Assembly (NCBI GenBank): GCA_038230535.1
Contig: JBBRNB010000019.1
Location: 2,165 to 66,164, forward strand
DNA: 64,000 bases
Origin: Thermoanaerobaculia bacterium
GTDB taxonomy: Bacteria; Acidobacteriota; Thermoanaerobaculia; Gp7-AA8
Reading direction: 5' to 3'
Part shown: one piece after another, positions 5,597-64,000 of the stretch
Layout of the letters: each line of letters opens with the position of its first letter
Numbering within the stretch: the stretch's first letter is position 1
Notes under the pieces: generated by a model
Seen by the model: the letters and a program-made list of their open reading frames with translations, nothing else
Told to the model about the DNA's origin: nothing
Databases searched by the model: none
Position numbers and translations under genes: made by a program

Positions 5597-6874
5597 ATGA
5601 CTATCGCGCCACCTGCAACCACAAACGACAGCAGCCTCTCGAAACTCGCACTCGGACTGACCGGCTCCGAGATCCTGAAGATCTCCGGGGAGATCAGGTT
5701 GCTCTCCGAAGCAGGACGCGACATCTGCAACCTCACCGTCGGCGACTTCTCGCCGAAGGAGTTCCGGATCCCCCGAGTCCTCGAAGATCTGATCGCCGAG
5801 GCCTTTGCTGCCGGCGAGACCAACTACCCGCCATCGGATGGAACGAAAGAGCTGCGTCAGGCACTGATCCGTTTCTACGACGACGCCCTCGGCCTGAAGT
5901 ATCCGATCGAGTCGACGCTCATCGCCGGTGGCGCGCGGCCGATCATCTTTGCCGCGTATGCAGCGGTCGTCGATCCGGGCGACAAAGTCGTCTACACCAT
6001 CCCTTCCTGGAACAACGCCCACTACGTCTACCTCGTGCGCGGCGTACCGGTCGAGATCACCGTCGGACCGGAGACGAACTTCCTCCCCACCGCCGGCCTG
6101 CTGCGGCCGCACATCCGCGACGCGCGCCTCATCTGCATTTGCACCCCGCTCAATCCGACCGGCACCGTCATGGCGAAGGACGAAGTGGAGCGGATTGCCC
6201 GGCTCGTGGTTGATGAGAACGAGCGCCGTGCCGCGACTGGTGAGCGCGCGTTGTTGCTGATGTGGGATCAGGTTTACTGGATGCTGACCTTTGGCGGCTA
6301 CCATCACTACACGCCGCCGCAGCTCGTCCCCGAGGTCATGCCGTACACGATCTTTGTCGACGGGATCTCGAAATCGTTCGCCGCGACGGGGCTACGCGTC
6401 GGATGGACGGTCGCGCCGCCGGTGATCACAGCGAAGATGCGCGACATCCTCGGCCACGTCGGCGCCTGGGCACCGCGCCCCGAACAGATCGCCGTGGCGA
6501 GGTTCCTCGGTATGCGCAGCGCGATCGACGAATACCACGAAGGAATGATTCGCGAGCTGCAGCTCCGGCTCGATCTCCTCTATGACCGAATCGAAGCGAT
6601 GCGCTGCGACGGCCTCCCTGTCCGCGCCATCACGCCGCAGGGAGCGATCTATCTCTCCGCCCAGTTCGACCTCATCGGCCGGGGCGGCATCACCTCGAAC
6701 GAGCAGATCCGCCGCATACTCCTCGACGAAGCCGGCTTCGCCGTCGTTCCGTTCCAGGCATTCGGCTTACTGCAAGAGACAGGCTGGTTCCGTCTCAGCG
6801 CCGGCGCAGTGTCGCCGAGGGAGATAGAAGAGGGGTTGGCGCGGGTTCGGAGTGTGTTGGGAAGGTATGTTTGA
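5597..6874 (+). CDS. PLP-dependent aminotransferase class I/II (aspartate/aromatic aminotransferase-like)
   Basis: Fold-type I architecture with the SKSFAATGLRVGW lysine motif, ~425 aa. Confidence 0.75.
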   Translation: MTIAPPATTNDSSLSKLALGLTGSEILKISGEIRLLSEAGRDICNLTVGDFSPKEFRIPRVLEDLIAEAFAAGETNYPPSDGTKELRQALIRFYDDALGLKYPIESTLIAGGARPIIFAAYAAVVDPGDKVVYTIPSWNNAHYVYLVRGVPVEITVGPETNFLPTAGLLRPHIRDARLICICTPLNPTGTVMAKDEVERIARLVVDENERRAATGERALLLMWDQVYWMLTFGGYHHYTPPQLVPEVMPYTIFVDGISKSFAATGLRVGWTVAPPVITAKMRDILGHVGAWAPRPEQIAVARFLGMRSAIDEYHEGMIRELQLRLDLLYDRIEAMRCDGLPVRAITPQGAIYLSAQFDLIGRGGITSNEQIRRILLDEAGFAVVPFQAFGLLQETGWFRLSAGAVSPREIEEGLARVRSVLGRYV

Positions 6875-6981: not shown

Positions 6982-7449
6982 ATGAGTGACACGCCCGAAC
7001 CAAAGCCTTGGACTTCGAAGGCGGCAAAGTACCTCGGCCTGGCCGAAAGCACCGTTCTGATTCTGATCGGATGTGCTCTGGTGCTGGTGGCGGTGTTGCT
7101 CCTTTACTCCAGCATGCATGACCTTCTGGCGGCCGCGCAAGGGGGCCCGAAGGAGATCGAGCACAAGTCCATCGAGATCCTGAACACGGTCCTGCTGGTC
7201 ATGATGACCATGGAGATCGTCTACACGGTGGCCATCTCACTCGAGTCGCACACGCTCAACGCCGAGCCGTTCCTGATCATAGGTTCCATCGCCGGGATCC
7301 GGCGCAAGCTGGTGATCACCGCCACATCGACCGAGAGCGAAACGAAACCGGCCATGTTCCACAACACTCTCGTGGAGCTCGGCCTCCTCTCGGCGACCGT
7401 GGTGGCCATGGCCGGCCATGGCCATCGCCATCTGAATACTTCGATATAG
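6982..7449 (+). CDS. PsiE-like (phosphate-starvation-inducible E family) small membrane protein
   Basis: ~155 aa, 4 predicted TM helices, IAGIRRKLVI segment resembling the PsiE family. The family assignment is tentative. Confidence 0.45.
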   Translation: MSDTPEPKPWTSKAAKYLGLAESTVLILIGCALVLVAVLLLYSSMHDLLAAAQGGPKEIEHKSIEILNTVLLVMMTMEIVYTVAISLESHTLNAEPFLIIGSIAGIRRKLVITATSTESETKPAMFHNTLVELGLLSATVVAMAGHGHRHLNTSI

Positions 7450-53497: not shown

Positions 53498-54706
53498 TCA
53501 CGACTTCCACAGCCTCCACGTCCACGCGCCCCAGACGAGCGACCAGAGCACGCAGACCGAGGCAACGCCGGCGGTGGCAGCCATCGCACCGAAGCGGTCG
53601 GCGGCGATGCCGGCGACGAGGCTGGAAATACTCATCGTCAGCGTGACGAAGCCGTAGTCGGCGCCGAAGACGCGGCCTCGGATCCAGTCAGGCGTTTCGC
53701 GCTGAAGACCGTACGTCGATGTCTGCCACTGCGCGCCCCCGCCGAGGTGCGCGGCGAAGACGGCGAATGAGCCAACCAGCAGAGTGCGTGAGAGGCCGAG
53801 CGCCATGTATCCCGCTCCGAAGAGGAAGACGGACGCGGCGATGAGGCGGTATTGGAGATCGCCCTTCCGCCCGGCCATGGCACGAATCAGGAACGGGCCG
53901 AGCAGCGCGCCCACTCCGCGCGCGGCAAAGAGAAGTCCGATGCCGAAAGCGCCTGCGCGAAAGACTTCCCTGCCGAAGACGCCGAGCATGGCCACCACGC
54001 CGGCACCGAGTCCGTAGCCGCCTTTCGACGTCAGCAGCGCCAGGACGCGCGGATGGGCGCGGGCGTAGCGCAGCGTCTCTCGCGTCGACTCGATGAGCGC
54101 CGGGCGTTCGTGATGAGCAGCCCGCTCCTCGGCGAATTGTGCGCGCATCCGCCAGAGAATCCCTGCCGAGGCCACGAAGCTCAGCGCATCGACAACAAAG
54201 GAGACATCGCGGCCGAAGCGCATCGTTACCAGGCCGCCCAGCGCAGCACCGACGGCGAGCATCGTCCCCCACGTCGATCCCATCAGCACATTCGCCGCGG
54301 AGAGCTCGCTCCCATCGACCAGATTCGGCAGCGCTGACTGCGACGCCGGCTCGAAGTACGCCGAGCCAACGGAGATGAGAATCACGCCTGCGTATGCGAA
54401 CGGCAGCATCGCCGGCGTGCGTGCCAGCAACGGCAGCAGGCACGCGCCGGCGCGGATCAGGTCGACCACGATCATCAGCTTGCGGCGGTCGGCGTGATCG
54501 ACGGTGTGTCCAGCGACCGGCGTCACCAGAAATATCGGAAGCGACTGGCAGAGCAACATCAGCGAGGCCAGCGTGGCCGAGCCGGTGAGCTGGAGCACGA
54601 GATCGAGCAGAGCGACGGTGAGAAACCAGTCCCCCCCGAGGGAGATCAGCGAGCCCAAGTACAGCAGCCGGAAATCGCGGTTGTTGCGGAGGAGCCGCCA
54701 GTACAT
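53498..54706 (-). CDS. MFS transporter
   Basis: 12 predicted TM helices and a GRxxDRxGRR-like loop (DHADRRKLM). 402 aa. Confidence 0.8.
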   Translation of the reverse strand: MYWRLLRNNRDFRLLYLGSLISLGGDWFLTVALLDLVLQLTGSATLASLMLLCQSLPIFLVTPVAGHTVDHADRRKLMIVVDLIRAGACLLPLLARTPAMLPFAYAGVILISVGSAYFEPASQSALPNLVDGSELSAANVLMGSTWGTMLAVGAALGGLVTMRFGRDVSFVVDALSFVASAGILWRMRAQFAEERAAHHERPALIESTRETLRYARAHPRVLALLTSKGGYGLGAGVVAMLGVFGREVFRAGAFGIGLLFAARGVGALLGPFLIRAMAGRKGDLQYRLIAASVFLFGAGYMALGLSRTLLVGSFAVFAAHLGGGAQWQTSTYGLQRETPDWIRGRVFGADYGFVTLTMSISSLVAGIAADRFGAMAATAGVASVCVLWSLVWGAWTWRLWKS

Positions 54707-54906
54707 GCGCCGCGCATCGTACCGCTGAGATCCTTGGTAGCGTCCGGAGGCCTGCGTCAGTCTCGAACGTGGACGAGTGTCGCTGTTTCAAATGCGCGAG
54801 AGCGCACGGTTTGCGCGCGAAGGAGGGTAGGTCCCGATTTTGCCCGGCTCGGATGGGTGCGGGAGAACTGCCGCCGTGTCCCTCCAACCCTAGAAGGAGA
54901 AAGCCC

Positions 54907-55155
54907 ATGGCGAAATGCAAGCCGTACCACTCCGATTCTGATGAATCTGGGCAGAACCGCGAAGTGCATCACGATCACGACGACTGCTACGAGGGCAAGA
55001 AAATCGAAGCGAAGCACCTGGAAGAGTGGCACTGGAGACAAGCCGCGCTGCAAAGAGTGCATCCGGCTCGGTTAGCAGACGCGTTCACGGAACGTGATCT
55101 CCCAATGGGGTCCGGTTGGTTCGTTCCCGTCCAGGACATTCCAGACGCGGCGTAA
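54907..55155 (+). CDS. Small hypothetical protein (82 aa), His/Asp/Cys-rich N-terminus
   Basis: Strong RBS (GAAGGAGAA) 6 nt before the ATG. MAKCKPYHSDSDESGQNREVHHDHDDCYEG... Moderate GC3. Confidence 0.4.
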   Translation: MAKCKPYHSDSDESGQNREVHHDHDDCYEGKKIEAKHLEEWHWRQAALQRVHPARLADAFTERDLPMGSGWFVPVQDIPDAA

Positions 55156-55467
55156 CTGATCTACTGGCAAGCCGCATCCTGGACATACCGAAAGAGCGCA
55201 AGAGAACGGGTTGGCCCTTCAAGGTGTACAATCACATCCGTCATTCCATCTACAGGACGAAACGGTGAAGTGCCTTCTAGCGAGGCGGCAGAGGAGGGTT
55301 CTCGTGATGCGCTCGGGTCGCTTGGTACACCCTCCTGGCGGTTGCGTGCGAGGTTGGCCGCTGAGTTCTAAGCTCGTGATTATCCGGTCCTCCTCATTGA
55401 CGGCGGCTTCCGGCCCATTGAGCAGGCAACGCGCCGTCCGCTCAATCTCGAGGAGCCAGAGCGGGCC

Positions 55468-56037
55468 ATGCTGATTCCGATGGAGAGAGGTTTCGATCCC
55501 GCATCAAAGGCACTCTCGTCGTTCGTCGCTTTGGACTTCGAGACGGCGAACCGGGATTTCGGCTCTGCGTGTGCTATTGCGGCGGTCCAGGTATTGTCCC
55601 GAGAAGTCGTGCGAAGGCTCAAATTCGTACTGAACCCTGGGCCCGTTACGTTCGAATTTGCGGAAATTCATGGCATCACGCGGGAGCTGGCATCCGCTGG
55701 TGTGACGTTTGACCTCGCGTGGCGCGAGATCGAGCCACTGATTCGCGAAACAGGGTTCATTGTCGTAGCACACAACGCGAAGTTCGACAGGAGGGTCCTT
55801 CAAGCAACGGCACGCCGCCACACGGTACGCCTGCCAAAGGTGCGATTCATCTGCTCGCGGAATCTTGCAGAAGCAGTCTGGGGTCTGCGCCCAAACGATC
55901 TTGCGACGGTTGCTGCGTATCTCGGCATCCCGCTGGTTCATCACGATCCTCTCTCCGACGCCGAGGCTGCCGCGCGAATCGTACTTGCCGCGGAAGACGA
56001 AAAGCTCGCTCGGCTTGCGAAGGAGGTACAAGCGTGA
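55468..56037 (+). CDS. DnaQ-like DEDDh 3'-5' exonuclease (stand-alone), first gene of the cas operon
   Basis: Exo I ALDFETAN, Exo II VAHNAKFD, Exo III HHDPLSDAEAAARI. The TGA stop overlaps the GTG start of cas3. Confidence 0.75.
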   Translation: MLIPMERGFDPASKALSSFVALDFETANRDFGSACAIAAVQVLSREVVRRLKFVLNPGPVTFEFAEIHGITRELASAGVTFDLAWREIEPLIRETGFIVVAHNAKFDRRVLQATARRHTVRLPKVRFICSRNLAEAVWGLRPNDLATVAAYLGIPLVHHDPLSDAEAAARIVLAAEDEKLARLAKEVQA

Positions 56038-58712
56038 AGAACGCGCCTCAGTACTACCGTTACTGGGGAAAGGCACAGGGCGATTCTCCGGAGTCGTGGC
56101 ATCCACTCGTCTACCACATGCTGGAGGTTGGTGCCGTTTGTGAGATTTTCCTCGAACACGACAGAACGATCGTCAGGTCGGTCACACGGTCGAGTGGTCT
56201 CACGGAGAGCAGCGTCCGGAGCTTTCTTCCATTTCTCGCCGCCGTTCACGATCTGGGAAAGTTCGCCGGGAGCTTTCAGGATCTGAAACCGGAGATCGTC
56301 TCGAAGCTCCATGGCTCGCGTAGCGTCTCTCCGTACACAGTGAGGCACGATCGGCTGGGCTACGTTTTCTGGAGTGACGTTCTCAGTCGCCGAAGTTGGG
56401 ACAGCGGCTGGCCACTCGCGGCTGTCGATGACAGGGACGACTGGGACTTCGCCGTGTATCGTGACGCGATGGATCCATGGCTTCGTGCAGCAACTGGACA
56501 TCATGGACAGCCGCCTGGGATCAGTGCCCTAAAACCTGCGTCACAGTCGTTCTCGGCGACGGCATGCAACGACGCGATACAATTCGTTCGTGACCTGATG
56601 AACATTCTCCGGCCGCAACCGTTACTCTTTCGCGACGCGTACTCAGCGGAGTCTGCGCTGAACACTTCGGCCTGGTCAGTAGCGGGCCTTACAGTGCTCT
56701 GTGACTGGATCGGCTCAAATCAGAAGTGGTTTGAGTATTGCGCTGACGTCGTCCCGCTTGAGGAGTACTGGACGCGATCCCTCGGTAAGGCCCGGGATGC
56801 TGTGAGACAGACGGGCATTCTGCCGAGTCGCGTATCATCGAATCTGGGTATGGGTGCGCTTTTCCCGTCCTTTGAGCCCAGCCCTCTTCAGACATGCGTT
56901 GAAACGGTATTTCTCGGTGACGGACCCCAGCTTCTGATCGCGGAAGAGATCACAGGGAGTGGCAAGACCGAAGCCGCGCTCATTCTCGCGCACCGAATGA
57001 TCGATGCCGGACTCGCTGACGGGATCTACATCGCTCTACCGACGATGGCAACAGCCAACGCCATGCACGGCCGGCTTGACTCGAAGTACAAGCTTCTATT
57101 CGATGATGGCGAGCCTGCATCGCTTGTGTTGACTCACAGCGCTCGCCATCTCGACGATGCAGCATCGGACCACTGCACTGTGTGGCTGGCCGACCATAGG
57201 AAAAAGGCTCTGCTCTCGCAAGTCGGAGCCGGGACGGTCGACCAGGCCCTGCTCGGCGTTCTTCCTTCGAAACACAATGTGCTTCGCCTGCTAGGACTCC
57301 AGCGCAACGTTCTCATTGTCGATGAGGTCCATGCATATGACTCATACGTGAGCCGGATACTCGAGCGGCTGCTCGAGTTCCACGCGGCTCTCGGCGGCAG
57401 TGCGATTCTGCTGAGCGCTACGCTGCCGAAGCCGGTGCGTCAGCGATGTGTCAATGCATTCTCAAAGGGCCTTGGGCGCAAGCCTCCGCAACTCGGTCAG
57501 GATGCCTATCCTCTTCTGACACAGGTTGGCGGTGATGGCTTGTCGGAGATCCCACTCGAAACGCGCAGCGGCTCACGGCGGCAGGTGAAGGTGGAGTTTC
57601 TGGAATCCTATGATGCTGCTGTAGAGGCGATCGTGAATGCCGTGATGCGGGGACGCTCCGCCTGTTGGATTCGCAACAGCGTGGTCGATGCGATCGAGGC
57701 CTACGAAACGATCGCGAACCGGCTCGGCGGGCACATCGTCACGCTATTCCATGCGCGCTTCATGATGGGAGATCGCCTGGCGGCTGAACGGGACGTCGTG
57801 AACCGGTTTGGTCCATCAAGCGGGCACGCGGAGCGCGGCGGAAGAGCCGTGATCGCGACGCAGGTGATCGAACAGTCGCTTGATCTCGACTTTGACGTGA
57901 TGGTGTCGGATCTGGCACCGATCGATCTGCTGATTCAGCGTGCGGGACGGCTCCAACGCCACACCCGCACCGAAGAAGGAGACAGGACGGCGGGAGTCGA
58001 ACAGCGGTCTGCTCCGGTTCTGCAGATTCTCGCTCCGCGCTGGAGCGAAGAGCCGGAGCCGGAATGGCTTACCGCACTGCTGCCCAGAACCGCGCGCGTC
58101 TACGGGCACGTTGGTCAGCTCTGGCTTTCAATGCGAATTCTCCTCGACCGCGGCTGCATCGCGCTCCCGGATGACGCGCGTCTACTCATCGAATCCGTTT
58201 TCGGAGACGATGCCTGGGACCGAGTCCCTGAAGGTCTTGGTAACGCTTCCCGCAAGTTCGAAGGAGAGCAGAGCGCGAAAGCCTCACTTGCGGGATTCAA
58301 CGCGCTCGTGCTCCGCGATGGATACAAGAGCACGCCCGCTCATTGGATTGAGGATACAGTGACTCCCACACGCCTGAGCGAGCCGACGACGACGGTGCGC
58401 CTGGCGCGGCGTAGCAATGGAACCCTCGCTCCGCTGTTCGATCACGCAAAATATCCGTGGGACATGAGCCAAGTCTCTGTCAGGCGCGCACTGGTCGCCA
58501 ATCGGTCAGCCAGCTCACCGGAAGAAGAACGAATGGTTAAGGATGCCGAGGAGTTGATGCGCGACAAAGGCAAGTGGAGTTTGACTCTGGTCGTCGAGCC
58601 GGCAGTCCCAAGCGGGTGGCGTGGACGGGCTCTCGACGCGGGCGGTAACCCTGTCGAGACCCGATATGACCAACGTCTCGGTCTTCTCATCCGAAAGGAA
58701 GTAGATCAATGA
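56034..58712 (+). CDS. cas3: CRISPR-associated helicase/nuclease Cas3 (type I-E; HD nuclease + SF2 helicase)
   Basis: N-terminal YYRYWGK (E. coli Cas3-like), HD motif HDLGKF, Walker A GSGKTEAAL, DEVHAYD box. ~892 aa from the GTG at 56034 with an AAGGAGG RBS. The listed 997-aa ORF includes an out-of-context N-terminal extension. Confidence 0.9.
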   Translation: MKNAPQYYRYWGKAQGDSPESWHPLVYHMLEVGAVCEIFLEHDRTIVRSVTRSSGLTESSVRSFLPFLAAVHDLGKFAGSFQDLKPEIVSKLHGSRSVSPYTVRHDRLGYVFWSDVLSRRSWDSGWPLAAVDDRDDWDFAVYRDAMDPWLRAATGHHGQPPGISALKPASQSFSATACNDAIQFVRDLMNILRPQPLLFRDAYSAESALNTSAWSVAGLTVLCDWIGSNQKWFEYCADVVPLEEYWTRSLGKARDAVRQTGILPSRVSSNLGMGALFPSFEPSPLQTCVETVFLGDGPQLLIAEEITGSGKTEAALILAHRMIDAGLADGIYIALPTMATANAMHGRLDSKYKLLFDDGEPASLVLTHSARHLDDAASDHCTVWLADHRKKALLSQVGAGTVDQALLGVLPSKHNVLRLLGLQRNVLIVDEVHAYDSYVSRILERLLEFHAALGGSAILLSATLPKPVRQRCVNAFSKGLGRKPPQLGQDAYPLLTQVGGDGLSEIPLETRSGSRRQVKVEFLESYDAAVEAIVNAVMRGRSACWIRNSVVDAIEAYETIANRLGGHIVTLFHARFMMGDRLAAERDVVNRFGPSSGHAERGGRAVIATQVIEQSLDLDFDVMVSDLAPIDLLIQRAGRLQRHTRTEEGDRTAGVEQRSAPVLQILAPRWSEEPEPEWLTALLPRTARVYGHVGQLWLSMRILLDRGCIALPDDARLLIESVFGDDAWDRVPEGLGNASRKFEGEQSAKASLAGFNALVLRDGYKSTPAHWIEDTVTPTRLSEPTTTVRLARRSNGTLAPLFDHAKYPWDMSQVSVRRALVANRSASSPEEERMVKDAEELMRDKGKWSLTLVVEPAVPSGWRGRALDAGGNPVETRYDQRLGLLIRKEVDQ

Positions 58713-60289
58713 GTCCATACAACCTGCTTGCGGAACAATGGATCCGAGTCCGTCGCGCATCAGGATTGTTAGATTGGATTGCGCCATGGCAGATCGCGGA
58801 GATCGACGATCCGGCCATGAGGATCGAGAGCCCCCGTCCCGATTTCGACGGCGCGCTGATCCAGTTCCTGATTGGGCTGGTGCAGACGGCAGCCGCACCG
58901 GCAACAAAGATAGCTTGGCGCAAACTGCTAGATCACGCTCCCCAGGATCTGCGTGAGAAGTTCGATGGCGTCGCGGAGGCATTCAACCTCGACGGCCCGG
59001 GCCCGCGGTTCATGCAGGATCTGACACTGAAATCCTCCGACGTTGATGGGACAAAGCCGGTCAGTGCTCTCCTGATCGATGCGCCGGCTGAATTCTTCGT
59101 GAAGCCGGGACTGGTGTGCGCGATAAGCTATCCGATGGCCGCAATTGCTCTGTACACGTTGCAGGCCAATGCTCCGAGTGGCGGCGTGGGGCACCGCACG
59201 TCGCTCCGTGGTGGCGGCCCGCTGACAACCGTGATTCTCGGCGATACCCTGTGGCGCACTGTGTGGCTCAACGTAATGACAGAGGATGATTTCATCGGAG
59301 GGCCCGGAAACTCAGATCGCGATCAAGCCGGAGCCAAGTTCCCGTGGATGGCGCTCACACGCACGAGCGCGAAGCAGGGTGGCCGGTCAACGACGCCTGA
59401 AGACGCGCATCCCCTTCAACACTACTGGGGAATGCCACGTCGTATCCGACTGAATTTCGATGATACGGCCACAGGGCGCTGCGACTTGTCCGGTGTAGAG
59501 GCAACGCTCGTTACAAACTACATCACGAAGAATTACGGCACGAACTATGAGGGAGCATGGATTCATCCGCTCACACCTTACACGCTGCAGAAGGAAGGAC
59601 AACCGCCGAATCCGAAGAAGGGGCAGCCGGACGGCATTCCCTATCGTGACTGGCCGCAGCTCGTGCTTGCGGGCAAAGAACGCCTCCGCGCACGAGTCGT
59701 CGCTGTATACGAGAGCGACCGTCGCTTCGAGCAGCAGGCGTCACCGCAGTTATGGGTGTTCGGCTACGACGTCGACAACATGAAACCACGCTGCTGGTAC
59801 TCGGGCACCACCCCAATTTTCCCGCTCGCTGAAGAGCGGCACCAGCGGGCGTACGCCGGCCGGATGCAGCAATGTATCGACGCGAGCGAGGACGTTCGAA
59901 AGACGATGATTCAGCAGCTCAAGGCAGCACTGCTGCGCAGACCGCAGGATCGCAACGGAGATCTGTCGTTCCTGTCTCGGCAGTTTTGGGCTGATACCGA
60001 GTCCCGATTTTTCGGCGTTGCGCGACGAATTCACGATGCAATTGTCGATAACTCGGACGACAGTCAGGCGCGGGAGGAATGGCTGGCCGCGATTCATCGC
60101 GCCGCGCTTCGGATCTTCACCTTGAACTCACAGGAGGCTGGCGAATTCGCGGATGCCGACGTGAAGCGGATCGCCGTCGCATGGAACAACCTCATTCAAT
60201 TTACGTCGCCGCGTAGCAAGAAGCTCCGCGGCATCGTCGATCTTGCGCCTGTCCCGGATGCAAAGGATCAAGGAGGAACAGATGTCTGA
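58709..60289 (+). CDS. cse1: Cse1/CasA (Cas8e) large subunit of Cascade
   Basis: NLLAEQWIRVR, similar to E. coli CasA N-terminal NLLIDNWIPVR. LRGGGPLTT resembles LRGGTPVTT. ATGA overlap with cas3. Confidence 0.88.
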   Translation: MSPYNLLAEQWIRVRRASGLLDWIAPWQIAEIDDPAMRIESPRPDFDGALIQFLIGLVQTAAAPATKIAWRKLLDHAPQDLREKFDGVAEAFNLDGPGPRFMQDLTLKSSDVDGTKPVSALLIDAPAEFFVKPGLVCAISYPMAAIALYTLQANAPSGGVGHRTSLRGGGPLTTVILGDTLWRTVWLNVMTEDDFIGGPGNSDRDQAGAKFPWMALTRTSAKQGGRSTTPEDAHPLQHYWGMPRRIRLNFDDTATGRCDLSGVEATLVTNYITKNYGTNYEGAWIHPLTPYTLQKEGQPPNPKKGQPDGIPYRDWPQLVLAGKERLRARVVAVYESDRRFEQQASPQLWVFGYDVDNMKPRCWYSGTTPIFPLAEERHQRAYAGRMQQCIDASEDVRKTMIQQLKAALLRRPQDRNGDLSFLSRQFWADTESRFFGVARRIHDAIVDNSDDSQAREEWLAAIHRAALRIFTLNSQEAGEFADADVKRIAVAWNNLIQFTSPRSKKLRGIVDLAPVPDAKDQGGTDV

Positions 60290-60800
60290 GCCTTCAGAAC
60301 GGCCGGTTTCTACAGAGAACGAGGCTGCCGCTGAGGAACTGGGGCCGGTCGTTCGTCGCTGGTGGGCTGCACTTGACGGGCGGCGTGGAGACCGTGCTGA
60401 CCTTCGGCGTGCTCGAACGCCGGCGGCCGTAGCGTTTCTGCCGGCGTATCACGCCCTTGTCCGCGATCTCCGCCGGGCCGGTGTTCATTTGATTGGAGAA
60501 ACAAGTGCCGTGATCGCGGGGGTCCTCCCGCACGTCGAGCGAGACGAATCCGTCCGAAGCTTCGCCAAACAGATGGCGTCCGAGCACAACGGCAAGGCTC
60601 GGGTAAGCGGACTGCGTTTTCGGAGGCTCCTGGCCGTCGACGATCCAGCAGAGTTGCAGACCTCTCTCGTCAGGACAATTCGACTGCTCGACAGAACGGC
60701 CGCGGTAGGCGACCTGGCCGACTCAATTCGCTGGTGGAATGACAGAACGAAGAAACGATGGGCGTTGGACTATTACAGGACCGCGCCGAACGAAGATTGA
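60282..60800 (+). CDS. cse2: Cse2/CasB (Cas11) small subunit of Cascade
   Basis: ~172 aa alpha-helical protein. The WWNDRTKKRWALDYY region resembles E. coli CasB WWGKRERQQLLEDFV. The ATG overlaps the cse1 stop (ATGTCTGA). Confidence 0.85.
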   Translation: MSEPSERPVSTENEAAAEELGPVVRRWWAALDGRRGDRADLRRARTPAAVAFLPAYHALVRDLRRAGVHLIGETSAVIAGVLPHVERDESVRSFAKQMASEHNGKARVSGLRFRRLLAVDDPAELQTSLVRTIRLLDRTAAVGDLADSIRWWNDRTKKRWALDYYRTAPNED

Positions 60801-60825: not shown

Positions 60826-61941
60826 ATGAGTGAATTCATCCAGATCCATGCGCTGACCGTCTATCCTCCCGGAAACCTCAACCGTGACGATCTCGGGCGG
60901 CCGAAGACGGCGATATTCGGAGGCACGCAGCGCTTGAGAATCTCCTCGCAGAGTTTGAAGCGCGCGTGGAGAATTTCGGACATTTTTTCGGCCGTACTTG
61001 CCGGCCACGTTGGTAAGCGCACGAAAGACATCGGCAACTACGCGTACGGTAAGTTGATCGAAAGGAACGTTGCATCCGATCGAGCGGATGAGCAATCAAA
61101 ACGGATCGCCGAGGTCTTCGGGAAACTCAAGGCAGTGAAGGAGACGGACGGCAAGAAGAGCCCCAAGGCACCGAAGGAAGCCAAAGCCGGCAAGGAAGCC
61201 GCAAAACACGCATCCGCGGGAAGGCAGATCGAACAGCTCGCGCATATCGGCCCCGCCGAGTTGGCGGCTCTCGACGCGCTCCTCGACCGCATCGCCTCGG
61301 GCGATACGCCTTCGAATGACGAATGCGCCGCGCTCCTATCAGATGCACACGGCGCGGCCGACATCGCGCTCTTCGGCAGGATGCTTGCCTCCACGCCTCA
61401 GAGAAACGTTGATGCCGCAGTCCAGGTGGCGCACGCAATCACCGTACACAAGGTCACGGTGGAGGATGACTACTTCACTGCTGTCGACGACCTGAACGAC
61501 GGTTCTGAAGATTCAGGCGCTGCGCATATCGGAACGACAGAATTTGGGTCGGGCGTCTTCTATCAGTACATCTGCATCGACCGCTCACTACTCGAAAAGA
61601 ACCTTGACGGGAACCGCGGACTGGCGAGCCTCGCGCGCCGCGGCTTGGTCGAAGCATGTGCGAAGATCGCGCCGTCAGGAAAGCAGAACAGCTTCGCCAC
61701 ACGTGCCCGCGCCGGCTACATGCTCGCCGAGCGAGGTGAAGAGCAGCCTCGCAACCTCGCGATGGCGTTTCTGAAGCCGGTCACCGGTGACGATCCTCTC
61801 GAGTCCGCGATTCGGTCGCTCGAAGAAACTCTCGGCAGGATGGACAAGGTCTATGGCCCGTGCGCCAGTGGGCGGTACACATTCAACGTACCAGCGGGAG
61901 AAGGCTCACTACAGAAGCTCCTCGACTTCGTGGCTGAGTGA
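60826..61941 (+). CDS. cas7e: Cas7e/CasC Cascade backbone subunit
   Basis: MSEFIQIHALTVYPPGNLNRDDLGRPKTAIFGGTQRLRISSQSLKRAWR closely parallels the E. coli CasC N-terminus. GGAGG RBS. Confidence 0.9.
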   Translation: MSEFIQIHALTVYPPGNLNRDDLGRPKTAIFGGTQRLRISSQSLKRAWRISDIFSAVLAGHVGKRTKDIGNYAYGKLIERNVASDRADEQSKRIAEVFGKLKAVKETDGKKSPKAPKEAKAGKEAAKHASAGRQIEQLAHIGPAELAALDALLDRIASGDTPSNDECAALLSDAHGAADIALFGRMLASTPQRNVDAAVQVAHAITVHKVTVEDDYFTAVDDLNDGSEDSGAAHIGTTEFGSGVFYQYICIDRSLLEKNLDGNRGLASLARRGLVEACAKIAPSGKQNSFATRARAGYMLAERGEEQPRNLAMAFLKPVTGDDPLESAIRSLEETLGRMDKVYGPCASGRYTFNVPAGEGSLQKLLDFVAE

Positions 61942-61948
61942 GGAATCG

Positions 61949-62698
61949 ATGCAGGCCTATCTTCTTTTTCGACTCTTCGGACCGATGGCGGCGTGGGGCG
62001 ACATTGCGATCGGCGAGCGTCGCCACATCTTTTCACAGCCCACGAAATCGGCAATCCTCGGGCTCGTCGCGGGTGCGCTGGGCCTTCGTCGTACGGACGG
62101 CGAGCAGCTTGCCGCACTGCACGATGGCTACGGCTTTGGGAGCCGTGTCGATTCTCCGGGTTTTCTTCTCACCGATTTTCACACTGCGCAGACGCCGCCG
62201 GAATCGGCGGTCAGGCGTGCGAAGGGCTTCCGGACACGGCGGGATGAACTGAGTATTCGACGGAGCGACCTCGAGACAATTCTCTCGTATCGCGACTACA
62301 GCACCGACGCGCTCGCTGTTGCCTGTGTCTGGCCAGTGGAGGGTGCGCCGTATTTGCTCGAGCAATTAGCCGAGGCTCTTCGCCGTCCGGTCTTTGCGCC
62401 GTACCTTGGACGGCGATCGTGCTCACCCTCGCTTCCGTTCGCGCCGCAAATCCTGGAGGAGAGCAGCCCGGTCGCAGCGCTGCGGGGCGTGACGTTCCCG
62501 GATGACGAGCTTCTGAAAAGCATCGTGAGCAGTGGGACGCGAAGCTACTACTGGGAAGGCGAGATCCCGGACGACATCAAGCATCTGCAGACAATCCGCC
62601 GGCGCGATGTCGCCCGAAGCCGGATTCAGTGGCAGTTCGCCGAGCGCGCCGAACACCATGCGGTGGAGGAGAACGCGAATGTTTCTGAGCAGAATTGA
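61949..62698 (+). CDS. cas5e: Cas5e/CasD
   Basis: MQAYLLFRLFGPMAAWGDIAIGERRHIFSQPTKSAILGLVAGALGLRR parallels E. coli CasD MRSYLILRLAGPMQAWGQPTF... Confidence 0.9.
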   Translation: MQAYLLFRLFGPMAAWGDIAIGERRHIFSQPTKSAILGLVAGALGLRRTDGEQLAALHDGYGFGSRVDSPGFLLTDFHTAQTPPESAVRRAKGFRTRRDELSIRRSDLETILSYRDYSTDALAVACVWPVEGAPYLLEQLAEALRRPVFAPYLGRRSCSPSLPFAPQILEESSPVAALRGVTFPDDELLKSIVSSGTRSYYWEGEIPDDIKHLQTIRRRDVARSRIQWQFAERAEHHAVEENANVSEQN

Positions 62699-63350
62699 GC
62701 TATGCGACGACGCCGCGCGGACAGCGCAGTTCTGGAAGCACATCGCGTCAATGAACGACGTTCATCATGTCGTCTGGTCGTGGTTTGCCGACAACCCCGA
62801 CCGTAAACGCGATTTCCTTTATCGGCACGAGGGGCAAGGGCTCACGACACGTTTTTTCACGCTCTCGACCCGGCTTCCTCTCGATTCGCGTGGCCTTTGG
62901 CGCATCGAGAGCAAACCGTTCGCTCCAAAGCTTGCCTCTGGCGAGCAGTTATTCTTCTCACTCCGTGCGAATCCGACGCGCAAGAAGAGTGACGGCTCGG
63001 GTAAGGGAAAGCGCCATGACGTCGTGATGGATGCGAAGCTGGTTGCACGGACCGAGGGAGGTGCGCCGAAGCCATTCGCCGAGCTCGTTGAGAGGGAGTG
63101 TATCGACTGGCTCGCGTCGCGAGCCGAAGCTTGCGGCTTCGAAATTGCGGAGGGAGACGTCCGCACGGACGCGTACCGGCCGGTCCGGTTCCCGCGCGGC
63201 AGGGGTCAGGCCGGCGCCTCGGTCACGATGGTCGACTATGAAGGACGCATTACTGTTCGCGACGTGTCTCTCTTCCTTCAATCGGTGATGCAGGGAATCG
63301 GCCCGGCGAAGGCCTTCGGCTGCGGGCTGATGCTGGTCAGGAGACTCTGA
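62679..63350 (+). CDS. cas6e: Cas6e/CasE pre-crRNA endoribonuclease
   Basis: MFLSRIELCDDAA..., C-terminal GIGPAKAFGCGLMLVRRL (E. coli GIGPAKSMGCGLLSLAPL). The start overlaps the cas5e stop. Confidence 0.9.
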   Translation: MFLSRIELCDDAARTAQFWKHIASMNDVHHVVWSWFADNPDRKRDFLYRHEGQGLTTRFFTLSTRLPLDSRGLWRIESKPFAPKLASGEQLFFSLRANPTRKKSDGSGKGKRHDVVMDAKLVARTEGGAPKPFAELVERECIDWLASRAEACGFEIAEGDVRTDAYRPVRFPRGRGQAGASVTMVDYEGRITVRDVSLFLQSVMQGIGPAKAFGCGLMLVRRL

Positions 63351-64000
63351 TGCTCCCGCCGCTGAAGCCGATCGCCATCAAGGAGCGTGTATCGATGCTC
63401 TTCATCGAGAAGGGCCAGATCGACGTCATCGACGGCGCCTTCGTGGTCGTCGATGTCACCGGAGTGAGGACACAGATTCCGGTAGGAAGTGTCACCTGCC
63501 TCATGCTCGAGCCGGGGACGCGCGTGTCGCATGCGGCCGTTACGCTGGCCAGCCGGGTGGGCTGTCTCCTCGTGTGGGTTGGCGAGGCAGGCGTGCGTGT
63601 GTATGCCGCCGGTCAGCCAGGCGGTGCGCGCTCGGATCGTCTGCTCTATCAGGCTCGCCTCGCTCTCGACGACGACGCGCGCCTAAAGGTCATTCGCAAG
63701 ATGTACGCAGTGCGCTTCGGCGAAGACGCACCGCAGAAGAGGAGCATCGAGCAGCTTCGGGGAATTGAAGGAGCGCGAGTACGCAGCATGTACGAACTAC
63801 TGGCACAGAAGGTTGGGATCACGTGGAAGCGAAGAAACTACGATCCCGAAGAGTGGGACCATGGCGACGTAGCCAATCGTTGTCTGAGTGCAGCGACGAG
63901 CTGCCTATACGGTGTAACCGAGGCCGCGGTTCTGGCGGCGGGGTATGCACCGGCGATCGGGTTTCTGCACACTGGAAAACCGCGTTCGTTTGTCTACGAT
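63350..64000 (+). CDS. cas1: Cas1 integrase (type I-E), partial; continues beyond the window end
   Basis: MLPPLKPIAIKERVSMLFIEKGQIDVIDGAFVVVDVTGVRTQIPVGSVTCLMLEPGTRVSHAAV ... YGVTEAAVLAAGYAPAIGFLHTGKPRSFVYD is near-colinear with E. coli YgbT/Cas1. Not in the ORF track because it has no in-window stop. ATG overlaps the cas6e TGA. Confidence 0.9.
   Translation, partial: MLPPLKPIAIKERVSMLFIEKGQIDVIDGAFVVVDVTGVRTQIPVGSVTCLMLEPGTRVSHAAVTLASRVGCLLVWVGEAGVRVYAAGQPGGARSDRLLYQARLALDDDARLKVIRKMYAVRFGEDAPQKRSIEQLRGIEGARVRSMYELLAQKVGITWKRRNYDPEEWDHGDVANRCLSAATSCLYGVTEAAVLAAGYAPAIGFLHTGKPRSFVYD

Follow-up and report, generated by a model that had tools for sequence, protein, structure and literature searches.

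Type I-E Cas1–Cas2 complexes bind prespacers with 3′ overhangs that need trimming. In E. coli, DnaQ (Pol III epsilon) and ExoT trim Cas1–Cas2-bound prespacers in vitro (PMC9699676; PMC10284694), but the two enzymes are redundant and dispensable in vivo and are non-essential for primed adaptation (PMC9699676). A first-pass annotation of the locus described here had attributed E. coli trimming to DnaQ and ExoT outright, which stands for the in vitro reaction but not for primed adaptation in vivo. A different arrangement is found in CRISPR4 of S. thermophilus DGCC7710 and in the Megasphaera "trimmer-integrase", where a DEDDh exonuclease domain is fused to Cas2 in a Cas4-less I-E locus (PMC10284694); this Cas2/DEDDh protein trims prespacers and, once half-site integration has occurred, also removes the PAM (Wang et al. 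2023, PMC10284694). Wang and colleagues propose the same role in trans for unfused accessory exonucleases in Cas4-less systems (PMC10284694), and stand-alone DEDDh exonucleases are described as ancillary components that are widespread across all CRISPR types (Makarova et al. 2020, as cited in PMC10284694). Cas4 (types I-A, B, C, D, II-B and V) fills the same slot, that of a cas-locus nuclease maturing prespacer 3′ ends, with unrelated fold and chemistry: Cas4 is a PD-(D/E)xK endonuclease with an Fe-S cluster that reads the PAM itself, whereas a DEDDh exonuclease is non-specific and would depend on Cas1 for PAM protection.

Here we describe a stand-alone DEDDh exonuclease gene at the head of a type I-E operon in a 64,000-nt stretch of a Thermoanaerobaculia bacterium genome (contig JBBRNB010000019.1; hereafter the window). 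The window shares 11,089 bp of identical sequence with a public contig (L001), which reaches 618 bp further. The features of the operon are as follows.

55468..56037, + strand: stand-alone DEDDh (DnaQ-like) 3′-5′ exonuclease, 189 aa; alternative start at 55480
56020..56037, + strand: coupling junction, AAGGAGG plus GTGA overlap; an NTGA overlap is common to the clade loci
56034..58712, + strand: cas3 (HD nuclease and SF2 helicase), 892 aa, type I-E (Pfam/NCBIfam and the identical contig's gene list)
58709..60289, + strand: cse1/cas8e, 526 aa; its ATG overlaps the cas3 stop (ATGA)
60282..60800, + strand: cse2/cas11, 172 aa (Pfam and the identical contig's gene list)
60826..61941, + strand: cas7 (CT1975-like), 371 aa (Pfam and the identical contig's gene list)
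61949..62698, + strand: cas5e, 249 aa (Pfam and the identical contig's gene list)
62679..63350, + strand: cas6e, 223 aa (Pfam and the identical contig's gene list)
63350..64000, + strand: cas1, 5′ part (full length 303 aa), running past the window end and completed on the identical contig

The stop codon of the exonuclease (TGA, 56035–56037) overlaps the GTG start of cas3 (56034–56036) by 4 nt as GTGA at 56034–56037, an overlap that the first-pass annotation had noted, and an AAGGAGG motif at 56020–56026, 7 nt before the cas3 GTG, lies inside the last exonuclease codons. The term "translationally fused" used in that annotation does not hold: the two ORFs are in different frames, and the 4-nt overlap amounts to translational coupling with no protein fusion. 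The I-E signature genes are complete and stand in I-E order (cas3, cse1, cse2, cas7, cas5, cas6e, cas1, cas2), and operon junctions are tight throughout, with overlapping stops and starts, which argues that the exonuclease is co-expressed with the whole system and not with cas3 alone. Coupling at the exonuclease/cas3 junction is thus not peculiar to cas3.

The exonuclease had been annotated as a separate gene heading the I-E operon, unfused to cas2, with the suggestion that the downstream cas2 be checked for a DnaQ fusion of its own. The gene list of the identical contig bears this description out: Cas1 (303 aa) is followed there by a separate, plain 99-aa Cas2 (PF09707) with no DnaQ domain. 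Cas2 is separate from the exonuclease in the window's own contig and in five related loci, and the gene lists of the window's contig and of the related loci contain no Cas4. The window and the identical contig both end before any array; in the orthologous loci L002 and L005, cas2 is directly followed by repeats of I-E type that recur every 61 bp. A scan of 54700–56300, which covers the region upstream of the exonuclease, returned no sigma-70-like promoter, and the DNA upstream of the gene shows no conservation among orthologous loci. An 82-aa ORF (54907–55155, + strand), also called on the identical contig, lies between a divergent MFS transporter gene and the exonuclease; its N-terminus is rich in His, Asp and Cys, and a Pfam search with it returned no match.

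The 189-aa exonuclease ORF opens with ATG and comprises a core domain (residues ~18–160) and a long C-terminal helix (161–188). The three DEDDh motifs reported by the first-pass annotation are located as it had stated, and the concern it raised that motif residues might vary was not borne out. In a 26-sequence alignment reaching down to 40% identity, D23 and E25 of Exo I (D23-F-E25, D-x-E) and H159 and D164 of Exo III (H158-H-D-P-L-S-D164, H-x4-D) are invariant, and D107 of Exo II (H102-N-A-K-F-D107) is kept save in three distant members that carry E, so that all five catalytic positions are conserved apart from this D107 to E change. The H-x4-D spacing of Exo III makes the protein a DEDDh type (h subtype, not y). 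As judged from this alignment, the active site is an intact DEDDh site, and metal-dependent 3′-5′ activity is predicted. The start was rightly called ambiguous between M1 (55468) and M5 (55480): neither ATG has a well-spaced Shine-Dalgarno sequence, and residues 1–17 differ among homologues in both length and sequence and are modelled as disordered by AlphaFold2.

Profile searches place the protein in the RNase_T family, the assignment that the annotation had proposed for checking (PF00929, residues 20–171, 51 bits against a gathering score of 24, E = 3e-13). The best NCBIfam match is the N-terminal exonuclease half of PRK06195 (E = 6.5e-36), yet all NCBIfam equivalog models, true epsilon-subunit models included, score far below their cut-offs (TIGR01406, 23.9 of 222.7 bits; PRK05711, 25.4 of 196; PRK06195, 124 of 373). 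The closest relatives by sequence are the N-terminal domain of PRK06195, a 309-aa protein whose C-terminal half is missing here, and the PolC-type exonuclease of T. maritima (2p1j, E = 1.7e-25); we know of no CRISPR link for either. ExoX and Pol III epsilon are also among the nearest solved structures by sequence.

An AlphaFold2 model built from the 26-sequence alignment (mean pLDDT 93.8) shows a DnaQ fold followed by one long C-terminal helix. Foldseek matches it with probability 1.00 to DinG-exo, PolC-exo, ExoX, RNase T and epsilon, the exonuclease domain of the DinG helicase (8zef) being best and 2p1j among the top matches. As far as the model goes, the exonuclease is a generic DEDDh enzyme by fold. 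We rejected an assignment to DnaQ proper, given the TIGR01406 score and the missing C-terminal extension of epsilon: Exo III leads directly into a single helix, with which the protein ends at residue 189, and the 243-aa epsilon chain 5fku_D aligns to it only over its residues 30–181. The part of epsilon that is missing is presumably the C-terminal segment that binds the alpha subunit. The exonuclease therefore shares superfamily and polarity with E. coli DnaQ and ExoT, but it is no epsilon orthologue (189 against 243 aa) and is encoded in the cas operon instead of being borrowed from the replisome.

The comparison with Cas2/DEDDh is closer in setting than in sequence. Both have the same DEDDh fold and the same Cas4-less I-E locus setting, and the expected job, prespacer 3′-end trimming and PAM removal, would be alike; here, however, the exonuclease has a gene of its own, located at the other end of the operon, next to cas3. 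By fold, 8h2f (the DnaQ domain of S. thermophilus Cas2) ranks fourth, with 18% identity in the structural alignment, whereas neither 8h2f nor 8h18, the Cas2-fused DnaQ structures, appeared in a PDB profile search even at E ≤ 10, and we rejected on this ground the idea that the gene is a detached copy of the fused domain. A likeness confined to the fold points to independent recruitment from a different DEDDh subfamily. The protein also matches the PADLOC model for stand-alone "DEDDh" ancillary genes (PDLC01247, E = 7.5e-22) and lies inside a cas locus, but this model is unspecific, as it matches a non-CRISPR homologue (on L097) at 1.7e-27.

A search of 5.8 billion proteins gave 177 matches, of which only the top ~12 exceed 53% identity. 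All eight close homologues with usable context (P0001, P0003, P0006, P0008, P0009, P0010, P0011 and P0012; 53–85% identity, 10 loci) lie immediately upstream of an I-E cas3, and they form one clade in a neighbour-joining tree. The exonuclease–cas3 order is seen in P0003 (85% identity) and P0009 (60%); P0006 (78%), directly upstream of cas3, is preceded by a WYL gene and a 90-aa ORF, P0008 (76%, from a Thermoanaerobaculia MAG) by Pif1, P0011 (57%) and P0012 (56%) by a WYL gene, and P0010 (61%) lies in the order WYL–HIRAN–exonuclease–cas3. The outer flanks vary among these loci (MFS, Pif1, WYL, WYL plus HIRAN) while the exonuclease–cas3 pair stays, which argues that the exonuclease travels with the cas operon. 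The clade is small: among 1.84 billion 50%-identity representatives we found one further member (P0123, 57% identity, C-terminal tail present).

WYL/WCX-domain HTH regulators, a CRISPR-associated regulator type, are encoded just upstream of the exonuclease in four loci (L002:8692–9705, L005:5257–6258, L006:2314–3327 and L092:1475–2458), and their position outside the exonuclease places the latter within the locus boundary. In L005, a HIRAN-domain gene (6269–6670) lies between the WYL gene and the exonuclease and overlaps the exonuclease start; HIRAN domains bind 3′ DNA ends. The window's own locus has neither a WYL nor a HIRAN gene.

An NTGA stop/start overlap with cas3 is present in all clade loci, as GTGA, ATGA or TTGA, and as CTGA in L005. 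The called start of cas3 in L005 (7305) leaves out a YWGK motif that is conserved at the N-terminus; homology starts at 7221, and CTG (CTGA) is the only codon at the usual overlap position. The L005 cas3 start has probably been called too far downstream, and the CTGA suggests either a non-canonical cas3 start or a sequencing error.

Two features are confined to the clade and missing from the rest of the family, a one-residue insertion and a C-terminal tail, AAEDEKLxRLAKEVQx. Across the clade loci, codons in the EKLxRLA part of the tail differ synonymously while the amino acids are kept, which argues for selection on the tail at the protein level. The last tail codons, E-V-Q, also carry the Shine-Dalgarno sequence of cas3. 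We considered whether the tail is conserved merely through this embedded signal; the synonymous variation rejects that explanation for EKLxRLA, and the final E-V-Q codons may owe their conservation to it.

Between sublineages of the clade, Cas3, Cse1, Cse2, Cas7, Cas5 and Cas6e are 39–62% identical and the exonuclease 53–61%. Across six complete loci (L001–L006), pairwise identity is 81–96% for Cas1 (81–85% between sublineages) and 72–88% for Cas2, a pattern that suggests either a much slower-evolving adaptation module or an exchange of modules. A mirror-tree style comparison of the exonuclease with each Cas protein gave no discrimination (r 0.83–0.97), the values being driven by the two sublineages.

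The wider family presents a different picture. It counts 5507 representatives at E ≤ 1e-3, and of 80 genome loci with members at 35–50% identity, among the matches listed, five are CRISPR-linked, a count that may overlook cas loci of types other than I-E where no array lies within 10 kb. These 80 loci come from species-representative genomes of many phyla (35–47% identity among the matches listed), the listed loci include no member of the close clade, and cas genes were sought with I-E protein queries and a k-mer array finder. Apart from the CRISPR-linked cases, the genes directly beside them are a mixed set of housekeeping genes, and the 25 Pfam families matched most often in the immediate neighbours of the 80 listed loci include no Cas family. 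On these neighbourhoods, the parent family is a widespread free-standing exonuclease. The survey of homologue neighbourhoods that the first-pass annotation had called for is therefore divided in outcome: the close clade is strictly cas3-linked (10 loci), but below ~53% identity the family is mostly not cas-linked.

The five CRISPR-linked loci fall into two further clusters of the neighbour-joining tree. In L036 (Elusimicrobia) the exonuclease precedes an I-E cas3 in the same direction, in L029 (Vicinamibacterales) and L054 (Thermoanaerobaculia) it is divergent from an I-E cas3 ~90 bp away, in L041 it accompanies decayed cas1/cas2 and an IS, and in L066 it lies directly beside an array. By this tree, the exonuclease family has been joined to I-E loci more than once, independently.

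Several neighbourhoods deserve separate mention. The L066 contig is 3.9 kb long with no cas genes visible, and its distant family member lies between a CRISPR array with ~67-bp periodicity, which is not of I-E type, and an mraZ–mraW cell-division cluster (L066:28–1278). Genes for AlbA_2 (Schlafen) plus HATPase_c_4 (plus HTH) proteins occur in two unrelated exonuclease-linked I-E loci (L036:8439–9902 and L029:10876–12054, minus strand), inserted between cse1 and cse2 in the former and adjoining the exonuclease in the latter. P0013 (52% identity), of the sister lineage of the cas3-coupled clade, has the Exo II Asp to Glu change and is found beside a type III-B locus (L008:3505–11573) with Cmr RAMPs, Cmr5 and a Cas02710-family gene, an uncharacterised 718-aa gene standing between exonuclease and locus; the contexts of P0014 and P0020 contain no cas neighbours. 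P0039 (45% identical; L097:2298–15553) lies between a Wadjet-like jetABCD cluster (JetD_C match) and sbcD–sbcC; genes for AbiE and Uma2 are close by, making this a non-CRISPR defence-island setting. Among 38 distant homologues on viral contigs, none is accompanied by cas genes. The family also includes a fusion of the exonuclease to a UvrD-type SF1 helicase (P0206, 881 aa) and, in an AT-rich organism, a membrane-anchored protein carrying a tandem pair of near-identical exonuclease domains (P0122, 549 aa).

We put at about an even chance the reading in which the exonuclease is a dedicated, trans-acting 3′-5′ prespacer trimmer for Cas1–Cas2; the first-pass annotation's prediction of a dedicated trimming factor is thus plausible. 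A small lineage, so far seen in Thermoanaerobaculia-like Acidobacteriota metagenome genomes, would have split from a free-standing PolC-exo/ExoX-like family and become a fixed part of the type I-E locus. The exonuclease would be made as the first cistron of a single exo–cas3–cse1–cse2–cas7–cas5–cas6e–cas1–cas2 transcript, translationally coupled to cas3, and would act in trans on prespacers bound by Cas1–Cas2, because the system has neither Cas4 nor a Cas2–DnaQ fusion. It would shorten 3′ single-stranded overhangs up to the boundary shielded by the integrase and, once half-site integration has occurred, remove the PAM-side overhang. We infer the DNA 3′-end substrate, the partnership with Cas1–Cas2 and the role in adaptation; the nearest solved relatives, which are DNA 3′-5′ exonucleases, and the two further subclades on I-E loci (L036; L029 with L054) support this reading. 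So do the conserved catalytic residues, the PF00929 match, the high-confidence model and its fold-level similarity to 8h2f, the complete I-E operon with its unfused Cas2, the persistence of the exonuclease–cas3 pair and its overlap among differing flanks, the WYL genes on the outer side of the exonuclease, and the precedent of Cas2/DEDDh. Against it weigh the position of the gene, always at the cas3 end and never beside cas1–cas2, the scarcity of CRISPR links in most of the wider family and the lack of sequence relationship to the Cas2-fused DnaQ domains. The dispensability of the host exonucleases in E. coli in vivo also means that a dedicated trimmer is not obviously required.

The position of the gene invites a second reading, less likely in our judgement though the strongest of the competitors, in which the exonuclease works with Cas3 and not with Cas1–Cas2. 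The HD domain would nick the non-target strand, the helicase would move 3′-5′ and the exonuclease would digest the freed 3′ ends, either speeding target destruction or shaping Cas3 products into precursors for primed adaptation, with the C-terminal helix of the clade as docking element. Three separate subclades have the gene adjoining cas3, and both orientations occur; the overlap of its stop with the cas3 start is conserved; and the tail of the helix (EKLxRLAxEVQ), under selection at the protein level, is kept in the coupled clade only. By structure, the protein is closest to the exonuclease domain of a helicase (DinG, 8zef), and the UvrD-type fusion in P0206 shows exonuclease–helicase pairing recurring in the family. 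However, the cas3 end is the sole free end of an I-E locus, as the cas2 end abuts leader and array, so position alone says little; all junctions of the window's operon are tightly coupled, not that with cas3 alone; and in L029 and L054 the exonuclease is transcribed divergently, so coupling is dispensable. In a more specific form, which we consider doubtful, the exonuclease would be a stoichiometric Cas3 subunit docked via the clade's C-terminal helix, a split exonuclease–helicase–nuclease machine (compare the DinG-exo and UvrD-exo fusions) that turns Cas3-unwound target into trimmed prespacer precursors. If that were true, interference would be physically coupled to primed adaptation.

It is improbable that the gene is a general DNA-repair or defence-island exonuclease that neighbours cas3 in one lineage without having any function specific to CRISPR. 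The large parent family with its heterogeneous housekeeping neighbours, the members in prophage or viral contigs, beside Wadjet/SbcCD and beside Uma2/AbiE genes, and the PADLOC DEDDh model that matches non-CRISPR members equally well are what one would cite in favour of such a passenger; yet adjacency and the 4-nt overlap hold from 85% to 53% identity while the outer flanks change completely, four loci have a WYL gene on the outer side of the exonuclease, a conserved tail sets the clade apart, and other subclades have attached to I-E loci independently. It is very improbable that the enzyme trims or degrades RNA instead of DNA (crRNA 3′ ends, transcripts or signalling oligonucleotides), as a weak Pfam match to the Rv2179c-like exoribonuclease family (24.8 bits, under the cut-off of 27), RNase T and ERI-type RNases among the fold matches of the model and the type III-B (Cmr) neighbour of the sister lineage P0013 would suggest, since by sequence the enzyme is closest to exonucleases of DNA proofreading and repair, Cas6e makes type I-E crRNAs on its own with 3′ trimming unneeded, and we know of no cyclic-oligoadenylate signalling in I-E systems.

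The first-pass annotation had called the arrangement uncommon. It is rare, but the category to which it belongs is already catalogued (Wang et al. 2023, PMC10284694; PADLOC DEDDh model): as far as these sources set it out, the stand-alone DEDDh exonuclease is a known class of CRISPR ancillary gene, generic and with no defined mechanism. Our literature searches for a stand-alone exonuclease coupled upstream of an I-E cas3 returned no description of this specific arrangement. What is new is a small defined clade that has a fixed pre-cas3 position, a conserved overlap with cas3 and a C-terminal helix of its own, and that arose independently of the Cas2-fused domain.

The practical gain is modest, because the general idea is already in the literature. 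The system nevertheless bears on how prespacer 3′ ends mature in vivo in Cas4-less CRISPR systems, among which the only dedicated-exonuclease system studied so far has its exonuclease fused to Cas2. With a DEDDh enzyme encoded on its own in the operon, trimming in trans would become cleanly accessible to genetics and biochemistry, as the exonuclease could be deleted without touching replication or Cas2; and because the gene is attached to cas3, a link between trimming and Cas3-driven primed adaptation could be probed as well.
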